From: an uncultured Gammaproteobacteria bacterium
GTDB lineage: Bacteria; Patescibacteriota; Microgenomatia; Levybacterales; UBA12049
Assembly (NCBI GenBank): GCA_964414015.1
Contig: CAYPUE010000001.1
Location: 8,893-72,892 of the forward strand
Direction: 5' to 3'
DNA: 64,000 bases
The translations under genes and the position numbers were made by a program. Shown one piece after another: positions 6,735 through 58,664 of the stretch; within the stretch, counting starts at the first letter, position 1, and each line of letters starts with the position of its first letter. The notes beneath the pieces are model-generated. The model saw only the letters and a list, made by a program, of their open reading frames with translations, was not told the DNA's origin and made no database searches.

Positions 6735-8942
6735 GTGAATAAACTTATGGCATTTTTTATCTCAAACAAACTTCTCTCGATCATTCTTTTTATCGCCTTG
6801 TTTGTTCGGATACTTGGTCTTTACCCCAATTTTATAAATCATCCTGATGAAGGGTGGGTACAAACATATTCAGGAAAATTATTCTACAACATTATTACGA
6901 AAGGCGATTTTAATCCTTATACATATAAGTATGGATCATTTATTTTTTATCTTGCAGCTATTCCGTACTTCCCAATTACGTCTGTCTCGTATCTAGCGGA
7001 AAGAGTGCAAGACGCAATTTTACCTTTCTCCACATCTTATTCGATGCCTTCATTTATCGAATACCTTACGAGAGTTGGATACAGTCAGCATCAAACGCTG
7101 ATATTTTGGTCTCAAAGAGCATTGGTTGCTCTTTTGGGAGCAGCCAGTGTGATCATACTTTATTTAATAGCCAAAAAGCTTTTTAACAAACCCATTGCGC
7201 TTTTAGCTGCTTTTTCATTTGCTGTTTTTCCGTTTCACGTTCGCGATTCTCATTATGTCGCAACAGATGTACCCGCAACATTTTTTATTTTATTAGCTGT
7301 TCTTTTTATGGTCAATCTTTCCAAAACAAGCAAATTAAAATGGTATTTTCTTTCCGGTTTCATGATCGGACTCTCAACTGCTGTTAGATATTTTCCTGTT
7401 GCGTTATTTGTTTATCCCATTGCAATTCTTCTTGATAAACAAAAAAATAAAATGTGGCTGCTGAAAATTATCCTTGGTTTTATCGCAATGCCTATTGGAA
7501 TCTTCGTAGGCTTACCTTACCTTTTCCTGAACCCCCAAAGCCACATTATCTTTCAGCAGGATATGGAAAAATGGGTTCTACCATGGTATAGCACGACAAT
7601 ATCAACGTATGTCTCATCTCTTGTGTCTTTTGTTCTGTCAAACGGACAAGGGATATTGCCAAACATTACAACTCTTATACCAAATACGTTCTCCCCCTAT
7701 TATGCGCGTTTTATTTTCTTTAGTGGTCTAGGACAAATATCGACAATTGCTTCCTTGATCGGCTTAGCAATAATTCTACTGAAGTTCCCAAAACAATTTA
7801 TATTTTTATCAATAATCCCATTTATTACTTTTATCTACATTAGCTTCTATATGCACGCGCAATACGAAAGGCTGGCGATACCCATTACGCCATTTTTATC
7901 CCTATATATTGGCGTTTTCATCTATACTTTTTGGAGTTGGATAAAACAGTTAAATGCGGTTAAAGCAAAAGTCATTTTCGGAATAGTTTGTTTTTCTGTT
8001 TTTTATTATCCCTTTACTCAATCTTTCAGTTCCAGTTGGGCTTGCGGACAAAAAACCGTATATCAGCAAAGTCAGGAATGGATTGCAGATAATATGCCTG
8101 ATAATCCAAAGGTTGCATATAAAACATATATTTCTTTTCCTTCGAAACCTTTTGATAAGCTGACAGAGATTAAGCCTACTGAAAATTTTTCTCTTGAAGA
8201 AGTACGCAATACGGACTCTGACTACGCATTTATAAATACCAGTAACGCATTGGGATATTACGCTTATAGATTTGACACTGATTTTTTTATTCCCCCAAAT
8301 GATATCTATCAAAACAATTTTGTTCTCTTGTCTCTATATGAATATAAAACAAGGGGAACACTACTAAAAAAACTGTCAAAACCAGATATGTGCGCTCAAG
8401 ATAATCTTTTATTTTATAAACTTCCCTCTCTGTTGCCCGAATCTAAAAACTTAATTAAAAATTTTTCATTTGAGACTACAAACGACATGAAGTTTTGGAG
8501 TCTTCAAAATTACTCATTGAGATCTAAAAAAGCAGAGATGCTTTATTCTGAAAAAGAAGGCATTGAAAAAGGATCATTAGGGTATAAATGGGAGAATATT
8601 TCTTTTACGCCGCCAAGAATAATTTCTCAAAAAATTAAAGTCACGGGTGGAAAAATATATACATTTTCGGGTTGGATAAAATCCAGCCAAATTCTTAAAT
8701 CAAATGAAAGAGATGGATTTTTAAGAATAGACTTTTATAAAGACCCAAAAAACAAAATTATTTTACCAGGCGACGCAGTTGCTCTTTCCCCAAGAGTTTA
8801 TGGTGACCCGGAATGGAAAAAAGTATCAATTTCCGCAATCGCTCCAAATGGCTCAAGCTTCGCTATTATCTCCCTAAACGTTACTGCGACAAAATCATCA
8901 GGGTCATTTTATTTTGATAATCTTCAATTCCTTGAACCTTGA
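6735..8942 (+). CDS. Large polytopic membrane protein, GT-C-like glycosyltransferase with C-terminal CBM-like beta-sandwich domain
   Basis: 735 aa. About 12 predicted TM helices in the N-terminal 430 aa, with an acidic first-loop motif NHPDEGW. The soluble C-terminal about 300 aa ends GSFYFDNLQFLEP, resembling CBM4/9-type carbohydrate-binding modules. The ORF begins at GTG, and an ATG at 6747 is an alternative start. Confidence 0.5.
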   Translation: MNKLMAFFISNKLLSIILFIALFVRILGLYPNFINHPDEGWVQTYSGKLFYNIITKGDFNPYTYKYGSFIFYLAAIPYFPITSVSYLAERVQDAILPFSTSYSMPSFIEYLTRVGYSQHQTLIFWSQRALVALLGAASVIILYLIAKKLFNKPIALLAAFSFAVFPFHVRDSHYVATDVPATFFILLAVLFMVNLSKTSKLKWYFLSGFMIGLSTAVRYFPVALFVYPIAILLDKQKNKMWLLKIILGFIAMPIGIFVGLPYLFLNPQSHIIFQQDMEKWVLPWYSTTISTYVSSLVSFVLSNGQGILPNITTLIPNTFSPYYARFIFFSGLGQISTIASLIGLAIILLKFPKQFIFLSIIPFITFIYISFYMHAQYERLAIPITPFLSLYIGVFIYTFWSWIKQLNAVKAKVIFGIVCFSVFYYPFTQSFSSSWACGQKTVYQQSQEWIADNMPDNPKVAYKTYISFPSKPFDKLTEIKPTENFSLEEVRNTDSDYAFINTSNALGYYAYRFDTDFFIPPNDIYQNNFVLLSLYEYKTRGTLLKKLSKPDMCAQDNLLFYKLPSLLPESKNLIKNFSFETTNDMKFWSLQNYSLRSKKAEMLYSEKEGIEKGSLGYKWENISFTPPRIISQKIKVTGGKIYTFSGWIKSSQILKSNERDGFLRIDFYKDPKNKIILPGDAVALSPRVYGDPEWKKVSISAIAPNGSSFAIISLNVTATKSSGSFYFDNLQFLEP

Positions 8943-8989
8943 CAATAATATTGCTTAAACTTATAATAAACAATATTAATATTACTCGA

Positions 8990-9526
8990 ATGAAGAAAAG
9001 TACATTATATATATCTATAATATTATTGTCGTTGTTTATTTTCCCTCCTGTTCAGGCTTCATTCGCAGAAGAATCAACCCAATCTGCTATAATTAAATAT
9101 GACCTTGCTTATCCGGGTATTCTTCCAGATAATCCTTTATACAAATTGAAAGTTGTTAGAGATAGAATAGTTGCATCCCTCATATCTGATCCCTATAAGA
9201 AAATCGAATTTTATCTACTCCAAACAGATAAAGGAATTTTAGCGACAGCAATGCTTATTGACAATAATAAGGTTGACCTTGCCCTACAAACAGCTTTAAA
9301 AGCAGAAAATAACTACACTTTGTTAACTCAACAATTATATAAGTTTCGCCAAAAACCAAATGCTAATTTTTTTAAAAAATTGAAAACAGCTTCGTTAAAA
9401 CACCAGGAAGTGCTCGCATCGTTAATTAAAAGAGTTCCTGAAAAAAATAAACAAGCCTTTGCGAACATTATTTATTTCTCACAAAGAAATCTTGAAACAA
9501 TAGAGGAATACAGGATAAAACGATAG
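8990..9526 (+). CDS. Secreted hypothetical protein (signal peptide), paralog of 26927..27460
   Basis: The ORF track gives 8939..9526. The likely start is the internal ATG at 8990 (MKKSTLYISIILLSLFIFPPVQASFA, a classic signal peptide). Shares motifs with the other paralog: YPG/LP...LYKLK near the N-terminus and LKHxEVLxxLxxxVPEK near the C-terminus. Confidence 0.5.
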   Translation: MKKSTLYISIILLSLFIFPPVQASFAEESTQSAIIKYDLAYPGILPDNPLYKLKVVRDRIVASLISDPYKKIEFYLLQTDKGILATAMLIDNNKVDLALQTALKAENNYTLLTQQLYKFRQKPNANFFKKLKTASLKHQEVLASLIKRVPEKNKQAFANIIYFSQRNLETIEEYRIKR

Positions 9527-19025: not shown

Positions 19026-20092
19026 ATTGTCGTATCTATTGCTATCTTTTTATATACATTAAATGTTTCTTCTGCAGTTTTTTTCCAAGAGAATTTTTTT
19101 GCCTGAATTAAACCTTTTTTAGAATATTCTTCCCTAAGCTTTTTGTTTTCGTACATTGTCCTAATGCCTTCGCCAATACTGTCAGGATCGTAAGCATTAA
19201 CATAGAAAACCGTATTGCTTGCAATTTCCGGTATTGACCCCTCTTTCGTAGTAACTACCGGACAACCGCAACTCATTGCCTCAAGAATCGGAAGACCAAA
19301 TCCTTCGTATAGAGAGGGCATTACAAAAACTGTAGCTAAATTGTAAATCATAACCAAATCGCTAGTAGGTATAAATCCTAAACGTAGAATATTTTTATCT
19401 TTTTCTACCAACTTCTCTACTCTAGTGCGATCTTGATTCCATAAATTATCTTTGTCAAAATCAAAATTCGTAAGAGCTTTTCCAACCATAACAAGAGGCA
19501 CCTTAATCCTCTTAACCGCTTCTATTAACCTTGGTAAATTTTTATTCCAAGTTACATCTCCCACATAGAGCAAAAAATTCTCCGGAAGGGAATATTTTTT
19601 GCTAATTTTTAATTTTAAATTTTCAATTTTCAATCGCTTGAACGCCTCGCCCGCGGCTAAGTAGATAACGTGAATTTTGCGTTCCGGAATCCCAACGTAT
19701 TTAACAATGTCTTTTTTCGAAGAAAAAGAATCAGTTATTACTGCATCTGCGCTGCTCAAGGCGGCTTTTTGCAATTGCCATTTTAGCTCTCCTTTTATGC
19801 CTCTTGGAAAAAATTTCGGAAAAGCTAAAGGCGTTAAGTCATGAACTGTCACTATTGTTTTATATTTTTTGTAAATTGGCAGTGTTAGAAAAAACGGCTC
19901 AAAATAAGGATAATGGACTAAATCCGTATCTTTGGGTAAATTTTCACCTCGAGTAAAAAAAGTATACTGATTGTCCGGATAATATTGCAATAAGGATTTT
20001 TTAAGATTTTCTATATAAAATCCTGTACCCCGAACTCTATGTGCAAGATTACGAGCGTCAATCAGCGGGGATACATCAACAGCTATGTTCAT
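19022..20092 (-). CDS. GT4 family glycosyltransferase
   Basis: 356 aa. C-terminal half FVMPSLYEGFGLPILEAMSCGCPVVTT is the canonical GT4 motif. Confidence 0.75.
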   Translation of the reverse strand: MNIAVDVSPLIDARNLAHRVRGTGFYIENLKKSLLQYYPDNQYTFFTRGENLPKDTDLVHYPYFEPFFLTLPIYKKYKTIVTVHDLTPLAFPKFFPRGIKGELKWQLQKAALSSADAVITDSFSSKKDIVKYVGIPERKIHVIYLAAGEAFKRLKIENLKLKISKKYSLPENFLLYVGDVTWNKNLPRLIEAVKRIKVPLVMVGKALTNFDFDKDNLWNQDRTRVEKLVEKDKNILRLGFIPTSDLVMIYNLATVFVMPSLYEGFGLPILEAMSCGCPVVTTKEGSIPEIASNTVFYVNAYDPDSIGEGIRTMYENKKLREEYSKKGLIQAKKFSWKKTAEETFNVYKKIAIDTTI

Positions 20093-23192: not shown

Positions 23193-23223
23193 TATGACCC
23201 TGAGTATTAATCGAAGGGTCATA
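23193..23223 (+). terminator. Hairpin (9-bp stem tatgaccct/agggtcata, 13-nt loop) in the 51-bp spacer between the transketolase subunit and the GT2 gene
   Basis: Perfect inverted repeat read directly from the sequence. Followed by the T-containing tract ctgagtttatcg. May be a weak intrinsic terminator/attenuator or a protein-binding site. Confidence 0.3.
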
Positions 23224-23240
23224 CTGAGTTTATCGAATGT

Positions 23241-24182
23241 ATGAAAAAGAAAATATCTGCAATTATCGCCTGCTATAAAGATGAACAGGCAATTCCTATT
23301 ATGCATAAAAGGCTATCTTTTGTATTCACAAAAATAGGAGTGGATTACGAAATAATTTTCGTAAATGATGGTAGTCCGGATAATACAGAAAAAGCGCTAA
23401 GTCTACTGGTAAAAAAAGATAAACACGTAATTGGGGTAAATCACTCAAGAAATTTCAGCTCTCAAATGGCATTTACAAGCGGTATGGAGATTGCAACCGG
23501 GGATGCGGTTGTCCTTCTTGACGGAGATTTACAAGATCCTCCCGAAATTATAGAAAAATTTTATAAAAAATGGCAGGAAGGATATGACGTTGTGTATGGC
23601 GTAAGAACGAAAAGAGACGCGCCTCTTTATATGGCAATTTTATATAAGTTGTTCTACAGGATATTTCATATGATGTCTTACATTCGTATTCCTCTTGACG
23701 CCGGAGATTTCTCCCTGATCGATAAAAAAGTGGTAAAGATAATTAAAACGTTTCCTGAAAGAGACAGATTTCTAAGAGGGATACGCGCATGGGTGGGATT
23801 TAAACAGATAGGCGTTCCTTATGTGCGTCCCGAAAGAATGTTTGGAAAAACTACCAATAACCTATTTAAAAATCTTAATTGGGCATCAAAAGGAATTTTT
23901 TCTTTTTCCTATGTACCTCTACAAATTATAACTCTTGTCTCGTTCGTTGTTTTTATTATCGCTCTTGTCGCAATGATGGTACAAATAATTTTAAGATTTT
24001 TACTGCCAAATACGCCTCAAGGAGCAACTACTATTCTCGTTATCTTCTTATTCATCGGCGCAATTCAACTTCTGGGAATTAGTGTTCTTGGGCAATATAT
24101 AGGTAAGATATTTGAAGAAGTAAAACAAAGACCAAAATATATTATAAAAAGTATTGTTAAGTATAATTCGAAACAGATCTGA
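23241..24182 (+). CDS. GtrB/DPM1/ArnC-like polyprenyl-phosphate hexose synthase (GT2 with C-terminal 2-TM anchor)
   Basis: 313 aa. ISAIIACYKDEQAIP, YEIIFVNDGSPDNT, DGDLQDPPE (DxD). C-terminal hydrophobic helices (LQIITLVSFVVFIIALVAMMV, TTILVIFLFIGAIQLLGISVLG) and QYIGKIFEE, as in GtrB/DPM1. Confidence 0.75.
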   Translation: MKKKISAIIACYKDEQAIPIMHKRLSFVFTKIGVDYEIIFVNDGSPDNTEKALSLLVKKDKHVIGVNHSRNFSSQMAFTSGMEIATGDAVVLLDGDLQDPPEIIEKFYKKWQEGYDVVYGVRTKRDAPLYMAILYKLFYRIFHMMSYIRIPLDAGDFSLIDKKVVKIIKTFPERDRFLRGIRAWVGFKQIGVPYVRPERMFGKTTNNLFKNLNWASKGIFSFSYVPLQIITLVSFVVFIIALVAMMVQIILRFLLPNTPQGATTILVIFLFIGAIQLLGISVLGQYIGKIFEEVKQRPKYIIKSIVKYNSKQI

Positions 24183-24183
24183 T

Positions 24184-25818
24184 TTATTGGTTTTTAACCA
24201 AAAGACTTTTGATTAATAAAAACAAACTTAATAATATAAAAATAAAGGATGAAATTGTACCAATCGTCCTTGGGCTCGTAGCTCCTAACTCTATTTTTAT
24301 ATCATGATTTCCTGCATTAAGATGGAAAGAAAAAAGCCCATTAGGAGTTACATTTATCTTAACTTTTTTGCCATCTACAAATACTGACCATCCTGGAAAA
24401 TATGCTGTATTTACTCCAATTTCCGAATCATCCTTAGCTTCGATCTTAAAATCATAAAAACTGCTAATAATTCTTTTGGGTGTTATAACGCCATCTCCTT
24501 TTAGAAAAAATGCTTTATCTTTTTGTTTCTTTAAATCTCCATTAAAAAATATTGTATTGAATGCATTTCCCGGGCTATTGGTTCCATCTATAAAATTCGA
24601 TCGCGTTATGTAGTAAGAATCTTCTCTATAAAGGTAGTAAGCTGGTTTTGAATATTCAATCCCCAAAAGAAAAGTAAAAGTAATCATAATGATTGCCAAA
24701 ACCCATGACTTCCAATAAAAAATAATACTCCCTGCCAGAAATGAAGTGATTAATATAACAAGACTTAAGAGTCTCCATGGAAACTGAAAATAATTTACAA
24801 GCGGAATATTAACCCAAATCGGATAGGAAATTTTTTGCATTAAAAATAAAAGAATTAGAAGGGATATTATAAAAAAGAAAATTATCCTGCATTCTGTTTT
24901 TTTCTTTATAAAAAATATACAACCTACACAAAAACTTATAAATGTTGCGAAAATATTAGCTATCCCTATTTGGACAGACATCTCCGTAGCTATATTGGTT
25001 CCAAAAAATCCGGATCCCCATGAAGGAATAATTAATTGATATAAATCCGGAAAATTAACATTCAAACTGAAAACTTCCAATCCAACGACATATTGCCTCT
25101 CAAATAGAGCAGGTATCCAAAAAATTGAAGATAATCCAAGACTAATTAGTATTACGTAGAAAGTATTAAGTATTAAGTATCTGCGATTATTGCTTATGCA
25201 TATTAGAAAAATAATGTAAGAAATAGAAAAAGCAAAAAACATTAAAGCTAAGATATTATGAGAAAATATAATTAACGCCAAAAATATACTTGAAATTGCA
25301 ATATATTTACTTTGTCTTTCTTTAAAGAATTTCGTAATCGACCAGAGAAAAGCCGGAAAAAAAGCAAGAGCCCACACCTCTCCCACAGAACCCCTAATGT
25401 ATGCATCCACGAAATGGTAAGGCGAAAATGAATAAAATACTGAAGATACTATGCCTCCTAATGTACCCCAAAATTCTTTGCTCCAAAGATAAAAAAATAC
25501 TCCGCCGATTATGAAGGCTAAGAACATCTCAAGCTTAAAAGAGTCTATGAAGCTTATACCAAAAATGTGAAAAAAGGAAGCGATGTAGTTTGGTAAGGGA
25601 TAAACGTAGTTAAAAAGCGGCACCCCATATCCATTATTTAAGTCCGGAGCCCAACGGGGATACCAATTGCCATCTCTTAGAACCTTATCGAATTCATAAA
25701 ATCTTACAATATGGTATTCTCCATCATGCGTAGGAGATAATCCCTTATGGATAAGTGAAAAACCAGCAATAATGGAAAATATAATAACTAAAAGTATTGG
25801 AAGAAATTTTTTCGCCAT
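24184..25818 (-). CDS. Polytopic membrane protein of the HDG-PRW-GYGYP family (YfhO-related GT-C-like) with C-terminal YFPGW beta-domain plus TM anchor
   Basis: 544 aa. N-terminal loop SPTHDGEYHIVRF...NWYPRWAPDLNNGYGVPLFNYVYPLPNY. More than 10 TM. C-terminus NTAYFPGWSVFVDGKKV...AGNHDIKIE then a terminal TM helix. Paralogs at 29242, 55651, 57144, 62826. Confidence 0.55.
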   Translation of the reverse strand: MAKKFLPILLVIIFSIIAGFSLIHKGLSPTHDGEYHIVRFYEFDKVLRDGNWYPRWAPDLNNGYGVPLFNYVYPLPNYIASFFHIFGISFIDSFKLEMFLAFIIGGVFFYLWSKEFWGTLGGIVSSVFYSFSPYHFVDAYIRGSVGEVWALAFFPAFLWSITKFFKERQSKYIAISSIFLALIIFSHNILALMFFAFSISYIIFLICISNNRRYLILNTFYVILISLGLSSIFWIPALFERQYVVGLEVFSLNVNFPDLYQLIIPSWGSGFFGTNIATEMSVQIGIANIFATFISFCVGCIFFIKKKTECRIIFFFIISLLILLFLMQKISYPIWVNIPLVNYFQFPWRLLSLVILITSFLAGSIIFYWKSWVLAIIMITFTFLLGIEYSKPAYYLYREDSYYITRSNFIDGTNSPGNAFNTIFFNGDLKKQKDKAFFLKGDGVITPKRIISSFYDFKIEAKDDSEIGVNTAYFPGWSVFVDGKKVKINVTPNGLFSFHLNAGNHDIKIELGATSPRTIGTISSFIFILLSLFLLIKSLLVKNQ

Positions 25819-26930
25819 AATTTTTCTTTTATGGATAAGTACAAAAGAGCCGCAATGGATGGAATAAAGGTTACCAAAGCTTTAATCAAAGGCGTAGGTC
25901 CGAAATAAGTACCAAGAAGCATGAATGGAATATAACGTAATAATAAACCAAAAGAGCAGGAGATGGAAAGATATAATAAAATTTTATTTTTTGGAACAAG
26001 AAATGAAAATGGAAGAAACCATATGGCATACCATGGGTAAATTTCTTCCCTAATTGGCGACAGTAAAAACGCCATTATCATTAATATTGCCGAATAAGAA
26101 AATACATTGTCCCAATTAATCTCCATTTTCCTTACTCTCCTTATGACAACATATATAAAAATAGGAAGTAAAAATAAAGTTGCATATTTTATAAGCATAG
26201 ATAATATTATAAAAATAATTGCCCAAAATATTCTCTTTTTCATTAATAAATAAAAAGCCAAGAGCGCAAAAAACATCATAACTATATCATTATGTCCGCT
26301 AATTAAAGTTTCTATAATTACTAAAGGATTTAGAACGAATAGCAGAAGAGTAGCAAAATTTTTTGATATTTTCCAAATGATAGATATTGTACCTAGATAA
26401 AAAAGGAGTATAAAAAGTTTAAAATTTAAAAGCGTTAGCAGAAAATTCCCAAAACCCAATACATAAGGTATTCCTGTTAATAATATCCAAACCGGACCGT
26501 ATAAAGCGGTTTTATTAGCAGCGTGCATAAAGAAAAGTAATGGATCTTTTGTAAACTCAATAGGCATAATTATATAAGGGTTTTCGTGGTAAAAAAATAA
26601 AACCTTTGAAGTTGCAACATAGTTAAAAATATCATAGGAAAGCATTGCTGGATAAGACAGAAGTAATAATGCAATTGTAAGAATTAAGTATAATTTAAGA
26701 TCTTTAAAACCAAATAATCCCATTTTGCTTAATCTAACTATCAAAAAATAAAATATAAAAAATATTAAAATGAGCAATATATATAAAACGGTTGTTAATT
26801 GGCGGTTACTAAAAGCAAAACCAGAATAAAGCCTATGAAGATATAAAAAATTTGGGTCTATAAATAAATATGAGAAAATTAAAAAACAAAATAAAAAAAA
26901 CGCATAAAGAAAGATAAAAACGGATTTCAT
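25788..26930 (-). CDS. Integral membrane protein (about 11 TM), putative GT-C-like glycosyltransferase
   Basis: 380 aa, highly hydrophobic throughout. Sits in a glycosylation context. No specific family assigned. Confidence 0.35.
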   Translation of the reverse strand: MKSVFIFLYAFFLFCFLIFSYLFIDPNFLYLHRLYSGFAFSNRQLTTVLYILLILIFFIFYFLIVRLSKMGLFGFKDLKLYLILTIALLLLSYPAMLSYDIFNYVATSKVLFFYHENPYIIMPIEFTKDPLLFFMHAANKTALYGPVWILLTGIPYVLGFGNFLLTLLNFKLFILLFYLGTISIIWKISKNFATLLLFVLNPLVIIETLISGHNDIVMMFFALLAFYLLMKKRIFWAIIFIILSMLIKYATLFLLPIFIYVVIRRVRKMEINWDNVFSYSAILMIMAFLLSPIREEIYPWYAIWFLPFSFLVPKNKILLYLSISCSFGLLLRYIPFMLLGTYFGPTPLIKALVTFIPSIAALLYLSIKEKLWRKNFFQYF

Positions 26931-27460
26931 AAATTGTTTTTCCTAATCTCAATCGATTTTAAAATTGCTTCTTTTAAATTTAATATTGTCGGAGGAGATT
27001 TTTCAGGCTTCCATTCAAACTTTTCCGGAACTTCACTTTTTAAAAGTTCGAGAACTTCTATGTGTTTTAATGCTGCATTTTGAAGAATATTCTTTTTATT
27101 CGCAATATTTTTATCTTCTCTCTCTGCTAACTTCAGATATAAAGGGGCTTGTGAAAAGTAGCTATCTGATTTAATTAATGCCTTATAACCCAACAAAAAC
27201 TGCTTGTATTCAAAGAGGGTTTTTGCTTCTACCAGATATTTATTTGATTGTTTTAGGTTATATTCAAACTGTCCGAAACTACCAAAGTGCCAATATCTCA
27301 TCATTTTCTCCCATACAAGGTGAAGTTTATACGAAGCACTTCCGGGCATTGAGGATGGATAAGGCAAAACGTAATTAGACTGCGCAAAAATAGCTGGAGG
27401 AAAAACTACGATCAACAAATAAATAATTATTGCGAATGCAAAAAGCTTTCCATTCGTCAT
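26927..27460 (-). CDS. Secreted hypothetical protein (signal peptide), paralog of 8990..9526
   Basis: The ORF track extends to 27502. The likely start is the ATG at 27460 (MTNGKLFAFAIIIYLLIVVFPPAIFA signal peptide), which overlaps the galE TGA stop as ATGA. Shared motifs LPYP...YKLHLV and LKHIEVLELLKSEVPEK. Confidence 0.5.
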   Translation of the reverse strand: MTNGKLFAFAIIIYLLIVVFPPAIFAQSNYVLPYPSSMPGSASYKLHLVWEKMMRYWHFGSFGQFEYNLKQSNKYLVEAKTLFEYKQFLLGYKALIKSDSYFSQAPLYLKLAEREDKNIANKKNILQNAALKHIEVLELLKSEVPEKFEWKPEKSPPTILNLKEAILKSIEIRKNNL

Positions 27461-28455
27461 TTTGAGTTTTGAGTTTTGAGATTTGAGATTTGTTTGTGCC
27501 ATTTAAAGGCTGTCTTAACAATTGTTTCAATATCTGAATATTGAGGCTTAAATCCTAATTCCGTATTAATTGCCGTAGGGTCAGCTACTAATCTTTCTGC
27601 ATCTCCGGGTCTTCTTGGTGCAATTTTCATTTTAAAATCAATGCCGCTTACTTTTTTTACCATATCTATAACCTCTTTATTAGAATATCCTTTTCCCGTA
27701 CCTGCATTATAGAAAAATCCTCCTTTATTTTTTTGTAATTTCTCAAGAGCCAACACGTGTGCTTCTGCTAAATCCAACACGTGAATATAATCCCTAATGC
27801 AGGTACCATCCTTAGTTTTGTAATCATCCCCATATAATATAAATTCTGATTTATCTATTGCAGATATTATTGCATTTGGAATTATATGAGTCTCGGGATT
27901 ATGATTTTCCCCCATTTTACCGTCCAAAGAGGCACCTGCGGCATTAAAATAGCGAAGACTGACAAAGCTTAATCCATAAATTTCTCTATACCAAGAAAGG
28001 GTTTTTTCAACCATTAGCTTACTTTCTCCGTATGGATTTGTAGGATTTTTTGGATGAATTTCCGGAATTGGAACCTGTATTGGGTTTCCGTATACTCCGG
28101 CTGTTGATGAAAAAATGATTGGAATGGGATTCTTGCTTTTTGACGCCTCATCTATCATGTTTAATGCTGCTAATAAATTATTCTGAAAGTAAATGTAAGG
28201 ATTTTCCATGGACTCTGCCATTGAGATATAACCTGCAAAATGAATAATTCCCTCAAATTCATTTTTCAAAAATAGGCTGGAAACAAAATCTCTTTTATTC
28301 AAATCGCCAATAATAAATTCTGCTCTGCTATCAACTGAATCTTTGCGGCCCCTGGAAAGATTATCAACGACCACGACTTGATAGCCTTTTTCCAAAAGTA
28401 GAGTCGTCATGAAACTGCCAATATAGCCTGCCCCTCCCGTTACTAAAATCTTCAT
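27457..28455 (-). CDS. galE: UDP-glucose 4-epimerase
   Basis: 332 aa. MKILVTGGAGYIGSFMTTLLLEKGYQVVVVDNLSRG. YGESKLMVE (YxxxK). Full-length GalE-like extended SDR. Confidence 0.7.
   Translation of the reverse strand: MKILVTGGAGYIGSFMTTLLLEKGYQVVVVDNLSRGRKDSVDSRAEFIIGDLNKRDFVSSLFLKNEFEGIIHFAGYISMAESMENPYIYFQNNLLAALNMIDEASKSKNPIPIIFSSTAGVYGNPIQVPIPEIHPKNPTNPYGESKLMVEKTLSWYREIYGLSFVSLRYFNAAGASLDGKMGENHNPETHIIPNAIISAIDKSEFILYGDDYKTKDGTCIRDYIHVLDLAEAHVLALEKLQKNKGGFFYNAGTGKGYSNKEVIDMVKKVSGIDFKMKIAPRRPGDAERLVADPTAINTELGFKPQYSDIETIVKTAFKWHKQISNLKTQNSK
27460..27494 (-). repeat. Heptanucleotide tandem repeat (ttttgag x4 plus one degenerate copy) at the galE 3' end and the downstream gene start
   Basis: Direct reading: ttttgag ttttgag ttttgag atttgag atttgtt. 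It encodes the galE C-terminal tail QISNLKTQNSK and precedes the ATGA start/stop overlap. Confidence 0.7.
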
Positions 28456-28464
28456 AGGCTAATT

Positions 28465-29229
28465 TTATTCTTTGATGTATTTTAGATATGAAACCGGAAA
28501 TCTTAAAGCCGAGAAAAAAGCAAATACGAATCCTTGCCAACTGTCCATAAACCCCTTATGCCGTATATATGATGTAAAAAACCACCATGCTGGAAGTATC
28601 AAGATATATTTTAGCATAGTTAAGGAGTCTTTCCCTAGTTTTTTGTCTTCATATTGTTTAGAGATGAAATCCGTATATCTTTTGAATCGCGTTAAATAAC
28701 GAGAGAAAGTTGGGTCAGCCACATGAATAAGCGGATTAGCTAGATACCCTATCTTTCCTTCGACAACCGCTTGTTCATGAACGTCTTTTTGGGGAAGTTT
28801 TCCTTTCCCTCTCTTATATAGCCTTAAAGTGTAATCGGGATACGCCCCTCCTTTCATTAAAAATCTTCCTAAAAACCAATTTTTTCTAGGAATCCAATAG
28901 CCATTCACATCGTCATTTTTGCTATTTGAGATTTGATTTTTGATTTCACTGCGAAGCGATGGCGTAACTCGTTCATCCGCATCAAGCTGCAAAACCCAAT
29001 CTTTAGATGCCATATCTATTGCTTTCTGTTTATTAATATGAAAATTAGGCTTATTAGTAGTTATTTTTACTTTAGCGCCAAATTTTCTGGCAATTTCCAC
29101 AGTTTTATCAGCAGAAGTTCCATCAACTACGATAATTTCATCCGCTATATCTTTTACGCTTTCTAAAGCAGCTCCAAGGTTTTCCTCCTCGTTAAAAGTA
29201 GCCAGAACAACAGAAAGAGTTTTACTCAT
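28465..29229 (-). CDS. GT2 family glycosyltransferase with conserved C-terminal GYWIPRKN domain
   Basis: 254 aa. LSVVLATFNEEENL, IIVVDGTSADKT, QLDADE. Low-complexity linker, then NGYWIPRKNWFLGRF...YPDYTLRLYKRGKG...VHEQ. Paralogs at 50886 and 52576. Confidence 0.7.
   Translation of the reverse strand: MSKTLSVVLATFNEEENLGAALESVKDIADEIIVVDGTSADKTVEIARKFGAKVKITTNKPNFHINKQKAIDMASKDWVLQLDADERVTPSLRSEIKNQISNSKNDDVNGYWIPRKNWFLGRFLMKGGAYPDYTLRLYKRGKGKLPQKDVHEQAVVEGKIGYLANPLIHVADPTFSRYLTRFKRYTDFISKQYEDKKLGKDSLTMLKYILILPAWWFFTSYIRHKGFMDSWQGFVFAFFSALRFPVSYLKYIKE
28917..28944 (-). repeat. Heptanucleotide tandem repeat (ttttgct atttgag atttgat ttttgat) inside the GT2 linker
   Basis: Read directly from the sequence. 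Encodes SEIKNQISNSKNDD on the minus strand. Same 7-mer family as 27460..27494 and 51356..51383. Confidence 0.6.
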
Positions 29230-29241
29230 AAGATGATAATA

Positions 29242-30894
29242 CTAGGAAAGCTTTGGTTTTACAAACTTAAAAACCAAAAGAGAAACGGTAACAAAAAGCG
29301 CAGCGAAAGAAATAATGTCTGATATCAATCTTAGCTTAGTTTCTTTATATTCTGCTTCAACCAGATAATTTCCTTTAGTTAAGTTAAAAGTCATAATCCC
29401 TCTATACTGCATATTCTGAAATTCTAGATAAAGAGGCTTTCCATTTGCTTTTATTTCCCAGCCTGGAAAATACAGGGTATTTTCTCCAAACAGAGCATTC
29501 TTATTAACTTGTACTTGATATTTATGATAAGTTGATTTCCTATCAAGTTCTTTTATTTTTGCGTCTCCGTCAATTACTTCAAGGTATGCTTTTGGCCTTT
29601 TTTCCATAAATCTTACAGACCATATGGGAGCGCTCTCCCCTGTATCCGTAGTGCTATCGTAGATGCCGCTATAAAAACTCTCTTCTTTTTGCAAAAATCC
29701 ATTTGCATGCCAATAATCTTTATTTACAAATAATAGAACTGCAACAAATATTAATAACGCTGCCTTTTTATATTTACTTGAAACTACGGATAATAAAATT
29801 CCTCCCATCAATGCGCTTAAAAAGACTGTAACGGAAAGAAACCTCCAGGGAAACTGAAACTTTTGAAGAGTTGTAATTGTCTGCCAAATTGGATTGGAAG
29901 AAGAGGTCATTAGGAATAGTGTTGCCCAAAAAATAATAAAGCTTCCCAAACATATAATCCATAGCTTATTTCTTTTTTTATATAAATAATACGCTGCAAT
30001 AATACTACCAACTACACCTATCCAGTGAATAATTCCTATTTGCTTGCTAAGAGCTATTGTCCCTCCATAACTCCATGGTGAAAGGAAAAAATCCTTCCAC
30101 GCTACAAAACTCCTTGTGTATTCCCCTCCTCCCGTAACAATGTCCCTAAGGGTATACTTTCCTTCTATCAATGCTGGTATCCAGAAGAAAGCGGATAACC
30201 CAAACCCAAGAAGTATTAAGTAAAAAGAGTTAAGTATAAAGTATTTTTTATTGGAGTACTGAAAAATTAGATAAAAAATGTATATCAGTATCAAGGGCAG
30301 AAACATAAGTGTTATTGCATTATGAGACAGGATAAGACCGGCCAATGAAAGCGATCCTCCCAATATCTGCCAATAGGAAAAATTTTTCGCAAGTTTAGTC
30401 AGGAAATAAAAGATAAGGGGCGGGAAAATAAATGCAACATGCTCACCAATAGCCCCACGGACATATAAATCAACAAATCTATAGGGAGCAATTATATAAA
30501 GCGCGCTTGCAAAAAATGCTGCTTTATCATCATTTAGTAATTCTTTAATAAAAAGGTACATTACTAGACCGCTTAGAACAAATGATGTACCAAAAACCAA
30601 CTTTACACTATCAACTAATGTAAATCCAAAAAAATGAAATAATGAAGCTAAATATGAGGGTAAAGGATAAAGAAATTCCAATATGGGGTGCCCGTATCCC
30701 CAGTTAAGATTACCCGCCCACCTTGGAATAATATTTCCTTCTTTTAGATTTTGATAAAAATTGGCAATTCTTGCAACATGATCTTGTCCATCATGAGTAA
30801 TCGGCAATCCCGAATAGAAAAAATCCAAAAGAGGAATAACTGATAATATGGTGAGTAAAAATAAAATTACTAATTTAGATTTAAAAATTTTCAC
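29242..30894 (-). CDS. HDG-PRW-GYGYP family polytopic membrane protein (YfhO-related GT-C-like) with C-terminal YFPGW domain
   Basis: 550 aa. PITHDGQDHVARI...NIIPRWAGNLNWGYGHPILEFLYPLPSY. C-terminus NTLYFPGWEIKANGKPL...KGNYLVEAEY plus a terminal TM. Confidence 0.55.
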   Translation of the reverse strand: MKIFKSKLVILFLLTILSVIPLLDFFYSGLPITHDGQDHVARIANFYQNLKEGNIIPRWAGNLNWGYGHPILEFLYPLPSYLASLFHFFGFTLVDSVKLVFGTSFVLSGLVMYLFIKELLNDDKAAFFASALYIIAPYRFVDLYVRGAIGEHVAFIFPPLIFYFLTKLAKNFSYWQILGGSLSLAGLILSHNAITLMFLPLILIYIFYLIFQYSNKKYFILNSFYLILLGFGLSAFFWIPALIEGKYTLRDIVTGGGEYTRSFVAWKDFFLSPWSYGGTIALSKQIGIIHWIGVVGSIIAAYYLYKKRNKLWIICLGSFIIFWATLFLMTSSSNPIWQTITTLQKFQFPWRFLSVTVFLSALMGGILLSVVSSKYKKAALLIFVAVLLFVNKDYWHANGFLQKEESFYSGIYDSTTDTGESAPIWSVRFMEKRPKAYLEVIDGDAKIKELDRKSTYHKYQVQVNKNALFGENTLYFPGWEIKANGKPLYLEFQNMQYRGIMTFNLTKGNYLVEAEYKETKLRLISDIISFAALFVTVSLLVFKFVKPKLS

Positions 30895-50885: not shown

Positions 50886-51659
50886 TTATTTCCTATCTCT
50901 TATTTCTTTCTGTTGTAGTTCCCACAATCTCGCATAGGTAATAAAGATGCTGAAAGATTGATATATACTCTCTATAATCCCCACAGTTCCTGCCTTCCAT
51001 CCTCCTTGCTTAACATAGGAATCAAAAAATGCAGTTGACATCACGCGCGGAAACCTCCACCATGAGATCTTGGGATGGTTAGCGGCTAATCGAAGCTTCG
51101 CTTCAACTTCTGACCACTCAATGGTTTTATTAAGCATCGCCGTAAGATCTCTATGTGAGTAATGCAACAGGGATCCATCCAATATTCCAACTTTGCCCTC
51201 AAAAATTGGGCTTTCATGAAGTTTGCCTTTCCAGCCTTTCAATTTATCTTTTCTAAAAAGCCTTTCTATTTTTTCTATAAAAGGCCACTCATTCTTTCTT
51301 GAAGAACCCAAATAAAAATTTTTCCTTTTAATTTTAAACGCAACTGCATCGTCATATTTGATATTTGATATTTTATATTTGATATTGCGAACAAGCTCGC
51401 TTGTGACGCGTTCATCTACATCTACATACAACACCCATTCGCTAGTTGATTTTTCTAAACCAAAATTTCTAAGAGCAGAAAAATTATCGGATTCCAATAT
51501 GTAAACTTTTGCACCCATATTTTTTGCTATATCCAAAGTTTTGTCCTTAGAACCTGCGTCAATCACGATAATTTCATCACAGAACGCAATCGAATTTAAG
51601 CAATCTTTAATTAAATTTTCTCCGTCTTTAACTATTACAATCGCAGAAATTTTACTCAT
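50886..51659 (-). CDS. GT2 family glycosyltransferase with conserved C-terminal domain (paralog of 28465 and 52576)
   Basis: 257 aa. ISAIVIVKDGENL, IIVIDAGSKDKT, VDVDE. Linker RNIKYKISNIKYDD encoded by heptanucleotide repeats. Confidence 0.7.
   Translation of the reverse strand: MSKISAIVIVKDGENLIKDCLNSIAFCDEIIVIDAGSKDKTLDIAKNMGAKVYILESDNFSALRNFGLEKSTSEWVLYVDVDERVTSELVRNIKYKISNIKYDDAVAFKIKRKNFYLGSSRKNEWPFIEKIERLFRKDKLKGWKGKLHESPIFEGKVGILDGSLLHYSHRDLTAMLNKTIEWSEVEAKLRLAANHPKISWWRFPRVMSTAFFDSYVKQGGWKAGTVGIIESIYQSFSIFITYARLWELQQKEIRDRK
51356..51383 (-). repeat. Heptanucleotide tandem repeat (atttgat atttgat attttat atttgat) inside the GT2 linker
   Basis: Read directly. Four copies with one mismatch. 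Encodes KYKISNIKY on the minus strand. Homologous position to 28917..28944. Confidence 0.7.
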
Positions 51660-52575: not shown

Positions 52576-53514
52576 TTACCAGCCAAACCTATCAATGAGG
52601 ATAACTAATATTTTCTTAAACGGATTCTTAACTTGTTTTATGCGCTCTTTTGATGACCAAAATTGTATTTGTTGATGTGATTTGTCAAGTTCACTTCTTA
52701 CCTCATCCAAAAGCTTATCACTTGTAGGATCGCTGAATTTCTGCATCTCCCATATATTTGCAAAAACGATAAAATGATAAAAAGCCATTAGGATTGAAAG
52801 CATTAAACCATGAAAACCATCCTTATAGCCTTCTCTTGCGAAAAACCTGCTTAAAAATTCTCCAAGAGGAAACCTTATGGCATCACGCCAGTTAAAAACG
52901 TATCCGTTAGCAATCCTTTGTTCTGCTTCATTTGGCGCGTAAATATTTGCCATTTTAGATAAAAATTGCCTAATTGAATCATAGTTATAATGAACGATAT
53001 TATTATTTAAATAAGCTGTTTCCCCTTCTACTTTTATCATCTCGTGAACATGTTTTTCTTCAAATCTGCCTTTACTGTTTTTGAACAATCTAAGCTGATG
53101 GTCCGGATACCAACCCGTATGCTGCATCCATTTGCCGAAAATTATATTTTTTCTAGGAATCCAGTAGCCATTGATTGGTCTTTGGCCGTTGGTCTTTGGC
53201 CGTTGGTCTAGAATACTGACGATTTCTTTTTGTAGCTCGGGGGTCGCTCTTTCATCCGAATCCAAGTTTAAAATCCAATCATTCTTGGTTTTTGAAAAAC
53301 CAAAATTTTTGTTTATATTGAGCATTCTGTTATTTGGCCTAACAAAAACTTTCGATGTATATTTCTTTGCGATGTCTAAAGTTCTATCTGTTGATGAGTT
53401 ATCAACGAAAATAATCTCCTGTGCCCATTTAACAGATTCTAAGCAGTCCTTTATTTTATCTTCGCTATTGAAGGCTGATATAACAACCGAAAGTTTAACC
53501 ATATTATTTCGCAA
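52576..53514 (-). CDS. GT2 family glycosyltransferase with conserved C-terminal GYWIPRKN domain
   Basis: 312 aa. LSVVISAFNSEDKI, IIFVDNSSTDRT, NLDSDE. Linker DQRPKTNGQRPING then GYWIPRKNIIFGKWMQHTGWYPDHQLRLFKNSKGRFEEKHVHE. Confidence 0.7.
   Translation of the reverse strand: MRNNMVKLSVVISAFNSEDKIKDCLESVKWAQEIIFVDNSSTDRTLDIAKKYTSKVFVRPNNRMLNINKNFGFSKTKNDWILNLDSDERATPELQKEIVSILDQRPKTNGQRPINGYWIPRKNIIFGKWMQHTGWYPDHQLRLFKNSKGRFEEKHVHEMIKVEGETAYLNNNIVHYNYDSIRQFLSKMANIYAPNEAEQRIANGYVFNWRDAIRFPLGEFLSRFFAREGYKDGFHGLMLSILMAFYHFIVFANIWEMQKFSDPTSDKLLDEVRSELDKSHQQIQFWSSKERIKQVKNPFKKILVILIDRFGW
53177..53209 (-). repeat. 14-nt tandem repeat (ggtctttggccgtt x2.4) in the GT2 linker
   Basis: Read directly: ggtctttggccgtt ggtctttggccgtt ggtcta. 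It encodes QRPKTNGQRPIN, with the unit read in two different frames. The unit length is not a multiple of 3. Confidence 0.7.
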
Positions 53515-57147: not shown

Positions 57148-58664
57148 ATCTTTTTTTTAATTACCGCAAACAAAAGCGCGCCAAAACTTATTATTGAAAT
57201 TAAATCCGCTGCCAATCTGATCGGTGTTTCCTCAAATGCAACCTTAACGTTATTCTGTCCCTTATCAAGATTTAATCTTATTAATCCCTGCTGATTATTA
57301 TAATCTATATTTGCTCTTTTCCTGTTGACAACCGCCATCCATCCCGGAAAATAAACCGTATTCACCTGAATTGTTCTTGGCGTTGGTAAATAAACATCAA
57401 ATGAGATTTGTTTCGGACTAATAATAGTTGTGTTAATTTTTTCCTGACCGTTTAAATTTTCAACTTTGGCGTTTGGTCTTGCAGATGGAAGAGCTTTAAC
57501 CCATTTTGGCATATATTCATTTTTTATTGTTGTTGTTGCCTCATTGGTTGCGTAAAATGTATCTCTTTTATCGAAAAACAAAGAAGGGCTGATAAATTGT
57601 CTGGCAGAAAAACCCAACAGCAATAATAGAATTACTGCCATAATAATTTTTAAATTTTTTGCCAATAATGAAAGCGACACTGCTGCCAAAAATGCCCCAC
57701 ATGAAATTGTCAAAGATAAAAAACGGAAAGGAAATTGAATAAAAGAAACCGGCAGAAAATTCCATAAAGGTTTACTTAATTCTACGGAAAAAAATAAAGA
57801 CAAAATACCGATAATAAAAAATAGAACTGTTAATCTGTGTTTGGCAAGCGCAATTTTATTAGTAAGAAAAAGAATTATTGTTAAAAAGAAAACAAAAATG
57901 ATCGGTATGCCAATTAAACTGCTATTTACGAAGTAATTGCTCCATTCTGAAACAGCAGTTTGGGAAAAAACCGTATATTGCAAATCCGCTATGGCCGGAA
58001 GCCAGAAAAAGGAGGAAACGCCTAAACCCAAAGTCACAGTAAATAGTAAATAGTAGATAGTAGATAGTTTTCTGAAAATAAAGTAAACAATAATAACAGG
58101 CAAAAACAAAACTGCCAGAGTATTGTGGGAAAGAATTAAAAGAGCAATGCCTATACTTGTCCAAAAAAGACTTTTACGCTCAATTTGCCAAAAGATAAAT
58201 GGGACGATTGCCAAAGCCAAGACTTCCCCGACAGATCCTCGTTTGTAAATATCATATAAGTGATATGGGACATAAAGATAAAAAAGTGCGCCGACAAATG
58301 ATTCAAGTTTTCCGAAAAACTTTCTTAGCCAAAGATATGCGAAAACCAAAGAGCCGGCCATGGACAAACCGAAAATTATTTTGATTGAATTGACAAAACC
58401 GAAACCCAAAAGTTTCGGTACCTCTGCCAAATACATGAAACCGGGATATAAAAAATTTGCCACCGGATAACCGTACTCGTAATTAAGTCTGGATAAAAAG
58501 CGCACTGGAAATTCTCCGGCTCTTAAAGCCTGATGAAAAGCAGAAAATCTGATAATCATCCATTCTCCGTCATCGCTTTGAAAAAATCCAGGATGAAAAA
58601 GAGAAGCAATAGATGGAATTGCAAAAATAATTAAGATAAAAATTAAAAATAAATTCTTCTTCAT
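57144..58664 (-). CDS. HDG-PRW-GYGYP family polytopic membrane protein (YfhO-related GT-C-like) with C-terminal YFPGW domain
   Basis: 506 aa. GFFQSDDGEWMIIRF...GEFPVRFLSRLNYEYGYPVANFLYPGFMY. C-terminus NTVYFPGWMAVVNRKRA...KGQNNVKVAF plus a TM. Confidence 0.55.
   Translation of the reverse strand: MKKNLFLIFILIIFAIPSIASLFHPGFFQSDDGEWMIIRFSAFHQALRAGEFPVRFLSRLNYEYGYPVANFLYPGFMYLAEVPKLLGFGFVNSIKIIFGLSMAGSLVFAYLWLRKFFGKLESFVGALFYLYVPYHLYDIYKRGSVGEVLALAIVPFIFWQIERKSLFWTSIGIALLILSHNTLAVLFLPVIIVYFIFRKLSTIYYLLFTVTLGLGVSSFFWLPAIADLQYTVFSQTAVSEWSNYFVNSSLIGIPIIFVFFLTIILFLTNKIALAKHRLTVLFFIIGILSLFFSVELSKPLWNFLPVSFIQFPFRFLSLTISCGAFLAAVSLSLLAKNLKIIMAVILLLLLGFSARQFISPSLFFDKRDTFYATNEATTTIKNEYMPKWVKALPSARPNAKVENLNGQEKINTTIISPKQISFDVYLPTPRTIQVNTVYFPGWMAVVNRKRANIDYNNQQGLIRLNLDKGQNNVKVAFEETPIRLAADLISIISFGALLFAVIKKKI
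58038..58069 (-). repeat. Heptanucleotide tandem repeat (agtaaat agtaaat agtagat agtagat) inside the membrane-protein CDS
   Basis: Read directly. Two perfect copies of each of two units. Encodes STIYYLLFT, which is TM-helix residues. Confidence 0.7.

Follow-up and report, generated by a model that had tools for sequence, protein, structure and literature searches.

The neuO gene of the Escherichia coli K1 prophage CUS-3, which encodes an O-acetyltransferase, carries in its 5' part a variable-number tandem repeat (VNTR) of the heptanucleotide 5'-AAGACTC-3' that is present in 3-53 copies and varies within cultures, and the gene is out of frame in 65.6% of genomes. In Haemophilus influenzae hmw1A and hmw2A, 7-bp promoter repeats present in many copies grade the transcription of a surface factor. 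In Helicobacter canadensis, 3'-proximal homopolymeric tracts vary in length among sequencing reads, and the change of frame alters the C-terminus of the protein without abolishing it. By published accounts, heptamers are the most abundant unit of long simple sequence repeats (SSRs) in many bacteria, approximately 7 nt was proposed as a slippage register of the polymerase, and coding DNA seldom contains units that are not multiples of 3 (Mrazek, 2007, as relayed in passages of PMC4692102 and PMC4679880). Here we describe a heptanucleotide array at the 3' end of galE, where this gene meets a gene for a DUF5667-family protein, in a 64-kb stretch of DNA (positions 8,893 to 72,892 of contig CAYPUE010000001.1, assembly GCA_964414015.1; hereafter the window, in whose numbering all positions are given) from an uncultured Candidatus Levybacteria bacterium of the Candidate Phyla Radiation (CPR), whose closest genomes are Candidatus Levybacteria/Levyibacteriota metagenome-assembled genomes (MAGs).

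The galE array resembles the neuO repeat in several respects: a 7-nt unit lies in the coding frame of a surface-glycan gene, AAGACTC is one base off the unit AAAACTC of the window, and the full-length protein results only at one residue class of copy numbers modulo 3. It differs in that the neuO array is 5' and varies within cultures, whereas the galE array is 3', has 4 units, and is identical in near-identical contigs. With hmw1A and hmw2A it has in common that the SSR is a heptanucleotide one; those repeats, however, lie in a promoter in many copies, as opposed to 4 copies in coding sequence at a translational-coupling junction. As in Helicobacter canadensis, a change of frame would alter the C-terminus and not abolish the protein, but the unit is 7 nt instead of a homopolymeric tract and the overlapping downstream gene is also affected. 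The long SSRs of Mrazek (2007), as far as they are described in the same passages (cyanobacterial short tandemly repeated repetitive (STRR) sequences, GGGAATC-type repeats of Xanthomonas and Nostoc, and TAACTGA of Beggiatoaceae), are likewise dominated by heptamer units and likewise lie between the same genes in related genomes with varying length and sequence. These families are mostly intergenic in those accounts and reuse one or a few units per genome, whereas the arrays described here lie nearly all in long open reading frames (ORFs), keep an in-frame length, and have different units by site (AAATCTC, AAATTGA, AATACTT, AATATCA, GACCAAC/GGCCAAA, and ATCTACT).

We consider it probable that the galE array is a heptanucleotide microsatellite of known class, made by slippage and filtered by reading frame. 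Replication slippage would have expanded a 7-nt seed, which is single in the related locus L001 (AAAATTC before ATGA), to four units, with a net gain of 21 nt or 7 codons (ISNLKTQ) added to the C-terminal tail of GalE past the end of the family model. The array would then exemplify a tendency that runs through Levybacteria and related lineages, heptamers appearing as the only over-represented tandem period in the sequences examined. They would occupy fixed, permissive sites in glycan-synthesis genes (the galE/DUF5667 junction, a loop of GT2 glycosyltransferases, a linker of GT4 glycosyltransferases, and a transmembrane segment of GT-C proteins), where units may turn over within arrays and total length remains in frame.

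The heptamer array and the genes that it joins

The galE gene (27457..28455, minus strand, as are the downstream gene and the heptamer arrays of the window given below) encodes a UDP-glucose 4-epimerase of 332 aa, identified by Pfam and NCBIfam TIGR01179. Its product scored 388.9 bits against the TIGR01179 equivalog model over residues 2-325, above the curated cutoff of 262.3, so the preliminary description was right to call the upstream gene galE; the seven residues added by the array fall beyond the end of the family model (residue 325). The array itself occupies 27460..27492 and was detected by Tandem Repeats Finder (TRF) with a period of 7, 4.7 copies, 96% matches, and the consensus TTTTGAG. 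The plus strand reads TTTTGAG TTTTGAG TTTTGAG ATTTGAG ATTTG, which in the minus-strand register gives (C)AAATCTC AAATCTC AAAACTC AAAACTC followed by a degenerate fifth unit, AAAATGA, that contains both the galE stop and the downstream start. In GalE codons the minus strand is read cac aaa CAA ATC TCA AAT CTC AAA ACT CAA AAC TCA AAA TGA. The last 11 codons of GalE, QISNLKTQNSK (residues 322-332, 27492..27460), are therefore encoded by the array, as had been described, although its end had been set at 27494, 2 nt too far.

A lag-p self-match scan of the window at periods 4-15 was compared with thirty third-order Markov simulations of the same sequence. The galE array scored 22 at lag 7, while no simulated array reached 17 at any period; the mean number of arrays per period in the simulations lay between 0 and 0.07 at the lowest threshold, and higher thresholds left no array. 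Strong arrays in the window numbered four at period 7 (at 19603, 27460, 51354, and 58038) and one or two at period 14, of which that at 53175 persisted at every threshold, and at the other periods from 4 to 15 there were none. Therefore, the galE repeat is significant, and period 7 stands out in this genome, a preference that matches the polymerase-register idea attributed to Mrazek (2007) in the passages named above. One might still regard the repeat as chance low complexity in AT-rich coding DNA, since the GC content of the window is 34% and the GalE tail is rich in Lys, Asn, and Ser codons. This reading is refuted by the simulations, by enrichment at period 7 only, by a length difference of whole units from L001, and by recurrence at the same site in many relatives, and we give it practically no weight. 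The preliminary description had held that orthologs with the same protein tail and no nucleotide repeat would argue for chance; the relatives instead lack both tail and repeat, or have a nucleotide repeat of a different unit. With head-to-tail copies beyond chance (TRF, Markov simulation) and whole-unit length differences among relatives, the array has the properties of a heptanucleotide SSR.

The stop codon of galE (TGA, 27459..27457) overlaps the start codon of the next gene (ATG, 27460..27458) in an ATGA at 27457..27460, as was claimed, and this overlap is also found in 32 of the 59 distinct galE junctions of relatives, all loci having been retrieved through galE. From this start the downstream gene (26927..27460) encodes a DUF5667-family protein of 177 aa, assigned from its homologs, Pfam, and the conserved start. 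Its hydrophobic N-terminus (MTNGKLFAFAIIIYLLIVVFPPAIFAQS) is signal-peptide-like, which agrees with the earlier description of a secreted protein, and its family comprises 1184 homologs of 170-194 aa, some of which are annotated DUF5667. An alternative upstream ATG lies within the GalE codons K-W (27500..27502) and is in frame with the downstream ORF only at copy number 1, 4, or 7. The start at 27502 gives the form of 191 aa on record (NCBI source), which overlaps galE by 46 nt and in which the array would be translated TNLKSQNSKLK. Relatives in which the upstream ATG is missing or closed (L003, L032, and L041) keep the ATGA start; because of this conservation, the gene, judged from sequence comparison, probably starts at ATGA and encodes 177 rather than 191 aa. 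Exact-protein look-ups of GalE and of both forms of the downstream protein matched no contig.

A second DUF5667 gene is located at 8939-9526 (Pfam E 1.3e-8), where it overlaps by 4 nt an upstream PMT_2 membrane glycosyltransferase gene (6735..8942), and this pair at 6735-9526 mirrors the galE/DUF5667 arrangement.

The galE junction in relatives and the question of switching

In L001, whose GalE is 87% identical to that of the window, a single unit precedes the same ATGA, the GalE tail is WHKQNSK*, and the junction reads tggcacaaacaaa-attcaaa-ATGAcgaatgg. The window thus has three units more (21 nt, 7 codons, ISNLKTQ), with both the frame and the ATGA overlap kept. A global alignment of 11.6 kb with L001 (84.7% nucleotide identity) contains only six indels, three of them coding, and these include the 21-nt (3-unit) gap at the galE tail, which is all that differs there, and a 9-nt one at a heptamer array in a GT2 loop. 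L002/L018 (GalE 88% identical) have AAATTTA x4.7, an array of the same length, without a gap against the window at the junction. L072-74, from three Sequence Read Archive (SRA) runs, have AAAACTT x2 followed by AAAACTC x2 (AABB), and L075 has the same two units alternating (ABAB). Among distant relatives (GalE 59-66% identical), L003 carries AAATCTC x4.4 and L032/33 and L041 carry AAATTCA x4.6, while eight loci at the same distance carry AAAATGA/AAAATTA x3.9-4.9, a unit that itself holds the stop/start ATGA.

A clear heptamer array is present at 14 of the 59 distinct junctions, always with 3.9-4.9 copies; in addition to these, L035 has a degenerate array, L063 has an array after the stop, and L075 has a further clear array of 4 units outside that count. 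The GalE tail past the conserved WH is 2-5 residues long in array-free close relatives and 9 or 12 residues long with arrays. A true difference of a single unit separates L031 (4.9 copies) from L027/L034 (3.9); L031 nonetheless retains its GalE tail as well as the N-terminus of the downstream protein, since every AAAATGA unit supplies a stop along with a start. Units vary among lineages yet are uniform inside each array, and this uniformity within genomes, together with the difference between genomes and the whole-unit steps, is the signature of slippage-driven turnover. In L019 (~985-1034), the galE tail array is broken by a short palindromic segment, tcccgatacgatcggga, and the tail reads KTNSKFIPIRSGQSSK*.

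We simulated the gain and loss of units at the galE junction. With 1, 4, or 7 units, the GalE stop stays in the ATGA; 2, 5, or 8 units fuse GalE in frame to the whole downstream protein (504-518 aa); and 3 or 6 units extend GalE by 25 residues, with the stop 86 nt inside the downstream gene. These outcomes bear out the earlier prediction that one unit more or less would alter the GalE tail and the coupling, and fusion or extension at the other copy numbers is a simple reason for seeing only 1 and 4 units. All array alleles observed were in frame. Selection at this junction seems to permit copy numbers of 1 modulo 3 alone, the frame change being confined to the C-terminus of GalE (residues 322-332 of 332), as in C-terminal phase variation.

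The array might, on the other hand, be a selected element that serves the downstream gene, either in cis as an unstructured A/C-rich spacer favouring termination-reinitiation at ATGA, or in coding, via the ATG at 27502, as a lysine-rich n-region of the signal peptide. The array is predicted to be fully unpaired in both the minimum free energy (MFE) and the centroid RNA folds, but the fold z-score of -0.74 is a mere absence of structure, as any A-rich sequence gives. A structured RNA element was also considered and rejected on this z-score, the unpaired array, and the result of Rfam, which found no RNA family in the whole window. The junction arrays are all A-rich with no G outside ATGA, all 14 arrays of the count lie at the stop or start, the additional one of L063 lies between stop and start, and the next gene started signal-peptide-like in every array-bearing junction whose downstream sequence was inspected; junctions leading into a different gene are all without an array. 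The unit sequence is nevertheless not conserved across lineages, and similar arrays occur within genes with no start codon nearby. Many annotated homologs begin MAQxKFKIQNSKFKI from the upstream ATG, and in L002/L018 the only long ORF extending into the downstream protein begins at this ATG, but the ATG is absent or closed in the three loci named above. L032 and L041 have 100% identical arrays of 32 nt between flanks that are only ~66% identical, which suggests constraint; we attribute this identity to repeated expansion of a conserved seed, AAATTCAAAATGA (tail NSK*), although constraint is also possible. In L001, L007, L008, L010, and L042 the same two genes are paired without an array, and therefore the array is dispensable. 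Taking both sides together, we find a selected element improbable, and we infer that the array has no required function.

Because the unit is not a multiple of 3 and a slip shifts the frame, as in a contingency locus, the array could also be a phase-variable one, in which slipped-strand gain and loss of units would reversibly switch three states (normal GalE with the coupled downstream protein; GalE fused to the DUF5667 protein; and GalE lengthened by 25 aa, with the start of the downstream gene occluded) and diversify surface glycans within the population, while the GT2, GT4, and GT-C arrays would serve as ON/OFF switches. The three frame states indeed have distinct and substantial outcomes, the arrays reside in surface-glycan genes, which are classic targets of phase variation, their positions are conserved while the units turn over, as expected of maintained mutability, and the AAGACTC repeat of neuO is a proven in-frame/out-of-frame switch. 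Out-of-frame alleles, which are common in contingency loci, were however absent from the 14 array-bearing junctions among the 59 examined, as opposed to 65.6% of neuO genomes being OFF, and 4-5 units at galE compare with 3-53 in neuO. No fusion-length GalE-DUF5667 protein was present among the best 120 of the 1184 homologs of the downstream protein, and no frameshifted high-scoring segment pair (HSP) was present at the array sites among 27-39 homologs per glycosyltransferase family (GT4, GT2, and GT-C). Copy number does not differ between close strains either: arrays were identical in 7 of 7 comparisons of contigs that are 98.7-100% identical, and protein clusters at 90% identity are tiny, with members equal in length and near-identical members having identical array-encoded loops.

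A population at least 99.9% identical to the window is present in Logan assemblies of SRR12113383, SRR12113384, SRR12113420, and SRR12113422, and, as a hint in favour of switching, the galE array interrupts its contigs in both of the two runs that reach the junction. In one run, L077 ends at 27462 and L081 starts at 27489, with an overlap of 28 nt, and both carry the same 4 units as the window; in the other run, L082 starts at 27485. Under a simple model, 27485 is the exact position predicted for the start of the shared path if a 3-unit allele co-occurs, and the other window arrays are crossed by Logan contigs without a break. Only one of the three contig ends fits a single-unit variant, however, since those of L077 and L081 match none exactly, and recurrent breakpoints across runs are also found at 29821 and 28022 (L077, L078, and L079). 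These breakpoints suggest strain heterogeneity or systematic coverage drops. The switching implied by the preliminary description thus did not appear among the relatives compared, either as an out-of-frame allele or as a strain-level change in copy number. The available comparisons of sequences argue against fast switching, and a phase-variable locus seems unlikely to us.

Heptamer arrays elsewhere in the window and the lineage

A census of tandem arrays with periods 2-24 was carried out over 60 non-redundant loci and the window (594 kb). It yielded 31 arrays at period 7, 4 at period 6, 1 at 9, 2 at 14, 1 at 21, and none at other periods. A 7-nt period had been called atypical for coding DNA, which is wrong for this lineage, where 7 is the sole over-represented SSR period. 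Of the arrays at period 7, 13 are galE junctions, reflecting the retrieval of loci through galE, and the remaining 18 have unrelated units (e.g., GCCACAA, AGGGGTT, AAGAATC, AATCGTC, and AATACTT). Nearly all are inside long ORFs at recurrent relative positions. One array of L005 (10776-10805, AGGGGTT x4.3) is G-rich and telomere- or G-quadruplex-like, and is located outside any ORF of at least 90 aa.

Three GT2 paralogs in the window each bear their own loop array: a degenerate heptamer array (IKNQISNSKNDD) at 28908..28946, an indel hot spot where the window differs by 9 nt from L001 and by 12 nt from L018; an AATATCA-type array at 51354..51386 in the homologous loop of a second paralog; and a 14-nt unit of alternating heptamers (GACCAAC GGCCAAA) x2.5 at 53175..53209 in that of a third, the last two found by both TRF and the lag scan. 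This loop, between DADE..EIK and NGYWIPRKN, is 51-60 nt long in array-free orthologs and 75-84 nt, i.e., 15-33 nt longer, with the arrays of L003 (GCCACAA x4), L025 (AGCCACG x3.3), and L047 (AATCGTC x4.6). In the sole directly comparable pair, the loop of L001 has 1+3 AAATTAG units and 72 nt, and that of L018 has one unit and 51 nt, a gain of 21 nt. An array of AAATTGA-type units lies in the interdomain linker of a GT4 glycosyltransferase (19603..19634), where length equals that of array-poor orthologs: the linker is 117 nt with or without a clear array, and orthologs show heptamer periodicity of varied perfection with different units.

At 25161..25180, AATACTT x3 encodes a portion (YLILNT) of a transmembrane segment in a PTPS_related/GT-C membrane protein, as seen from the array scan and homologs, and an ATCTACT/ATTTACT array (TRF, lag scan) occupies the homologous position of a GT-C paralog at 58038..58068. 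An (AATACTT)n array encodes the transmembrane motif KYLILNTLYLILL of PTPS_related/GT-C proteins in many orthologs and paralogs (window 25150-25200 and 30200-30250, L031 near 12623, L063 near 12673, and other loci), and one T-for-A variant unit sidesteps an in-frame TAA.

Lag-7 identity was measured along each protein family with the window sequence left out, and its peaks coincide with the array sites, reaching 0.49 at aa 150-154 of GT4 (median, 0.27), 0.43 at aa 94 of GT2 (median, 0.28), and 0.47 at aa 208-212 of GT-C (median, 0.28). The body of GalE has no such peak (maximum 0.34).

It had been proposed that a single 7-mer family recurs at 28917 and 51356. The recurrence stands in that the 12-mer ATTTGAGATTTG is found exactly at 28924 and with one mismatch at 51356, but its count is not significant by itself (4 matches where 1.7 are expected, a number that 8 of 100 shuffles also attained), and the sites are better described as independent arrays at homologous GT2 loops whose units are unrelated in other genomes. 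Such similarity could arise if short templated copying, through ectopic gene conversion or template switching, took place between similar A-rich arrays of one genome and so spread or renewed them, in addition to local slippage. A non-repeat motif, ATGACGA, follows three window arrays, at the galE junction (27454-27463) and in two GT2 loops (28908-28944 and 51347-51383), and is missing from the orthologs of the first GT2 in L001 and L018; over a 37-nt stretch of their loops, two GT2 paralogs with 29% protein identity are 86% identical; and the 12-mer CAAATCTCAAAT occurs both in the galE array and, 1.4 kb from it, in the GT2 loop. Short matches in low-complexity A-rich sequence are only weakly significant, as the shuffles indicate, homologous sites of other genomes carry units that bear no relation to one another, and no longer shared flank was found. 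The similarity between the galE array and the GT2 loop is therefore suggestive and too low in complexity to call, and we regard templated copying as very doubtful as the origin of the arrays.

Several observations weigh against slippage filtered by frame as the full account. Stepwise slippage assumes passage through out-of-frame states, and no intermediates with 2 full units were seen in the scan, in which 3-copy arrays (AATACTT x3 and AGCCACG x3.3) were found. A single multi-unit event or templated copying, instead of stepwise slippage, is possible. The identical arrays of L032 and L041 need either recurrent expansion from the conserved seed or sequence constraint, and heptamer periodicity at the same protein positions down to ~30-47% identity exceeds what a neutral by-product would easily explain. 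Retrieval of all loci via galE and the composition of the window, which is wholly a glycan cluster, limit generality across the genome.

Neighbouring features and biological meaning

All window genes examined are glycan-synthesis genes; they encode GT2, GT4, PMT, and PTPS_related membrane transferases, sugar epimerases, aminotransferases, and methyltransferases. Five large ORFs tested are PTPS_related or PMT membrane transferases, and several more of similar size lie in 30-60 kb. Approximately 17 junctions of adjacent ORFs in the mechanical ORF list of the window overlap by 4 nt. An intergenic segment of 41 nt (cctgagtattaatcgaagggtcatactgagtttatcgaatg) at 23199-23239 occurs in the window but in neither L001 nor L018; within it are an inverted repeat of 7 bp (tgaccct...agggtca) and an imperfect direct repeat. 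This segment was considered as a dispersed element and rejected, no other copy being present in the window or the loci. The convergent genes 23241..24182 (plus strand) and 24184..25818 (minus strand) are only 1 nt apart in the window, and L001/L018 have an extra 45-46 nt at this place (~24177-24183).

For the genes concerned, the galE array explains the 7-residue tail of GalE and the ambiguous start of the next gene (191 aa recorded against probably 177 aa). The wider pattern outweighs the single locus: heptamers of a CPR lineage are placed in frame at fixed sites of many glycan-synthesis genes, and in one case heptamers, which are usually intergenic and avoided in coding DNA, encode a transmembrane segment. 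It could be proposed that Levybacteria, and perhaps other Microgenomates, maintain position-conserved, sequence-shifting heptamer arrays as low-copy contingency loci in surface-glycan genes; we hold this to be a doubtful extension, and, if true, it would make these arrays the first known case of phase variation by SSRs in the Candidate Phyla Radiation. Heptamer arrays are, in any case, a visible source of change in protein length and sequence, and a candidate, as yet unproven, route to surface variation in these uncultured organisms.

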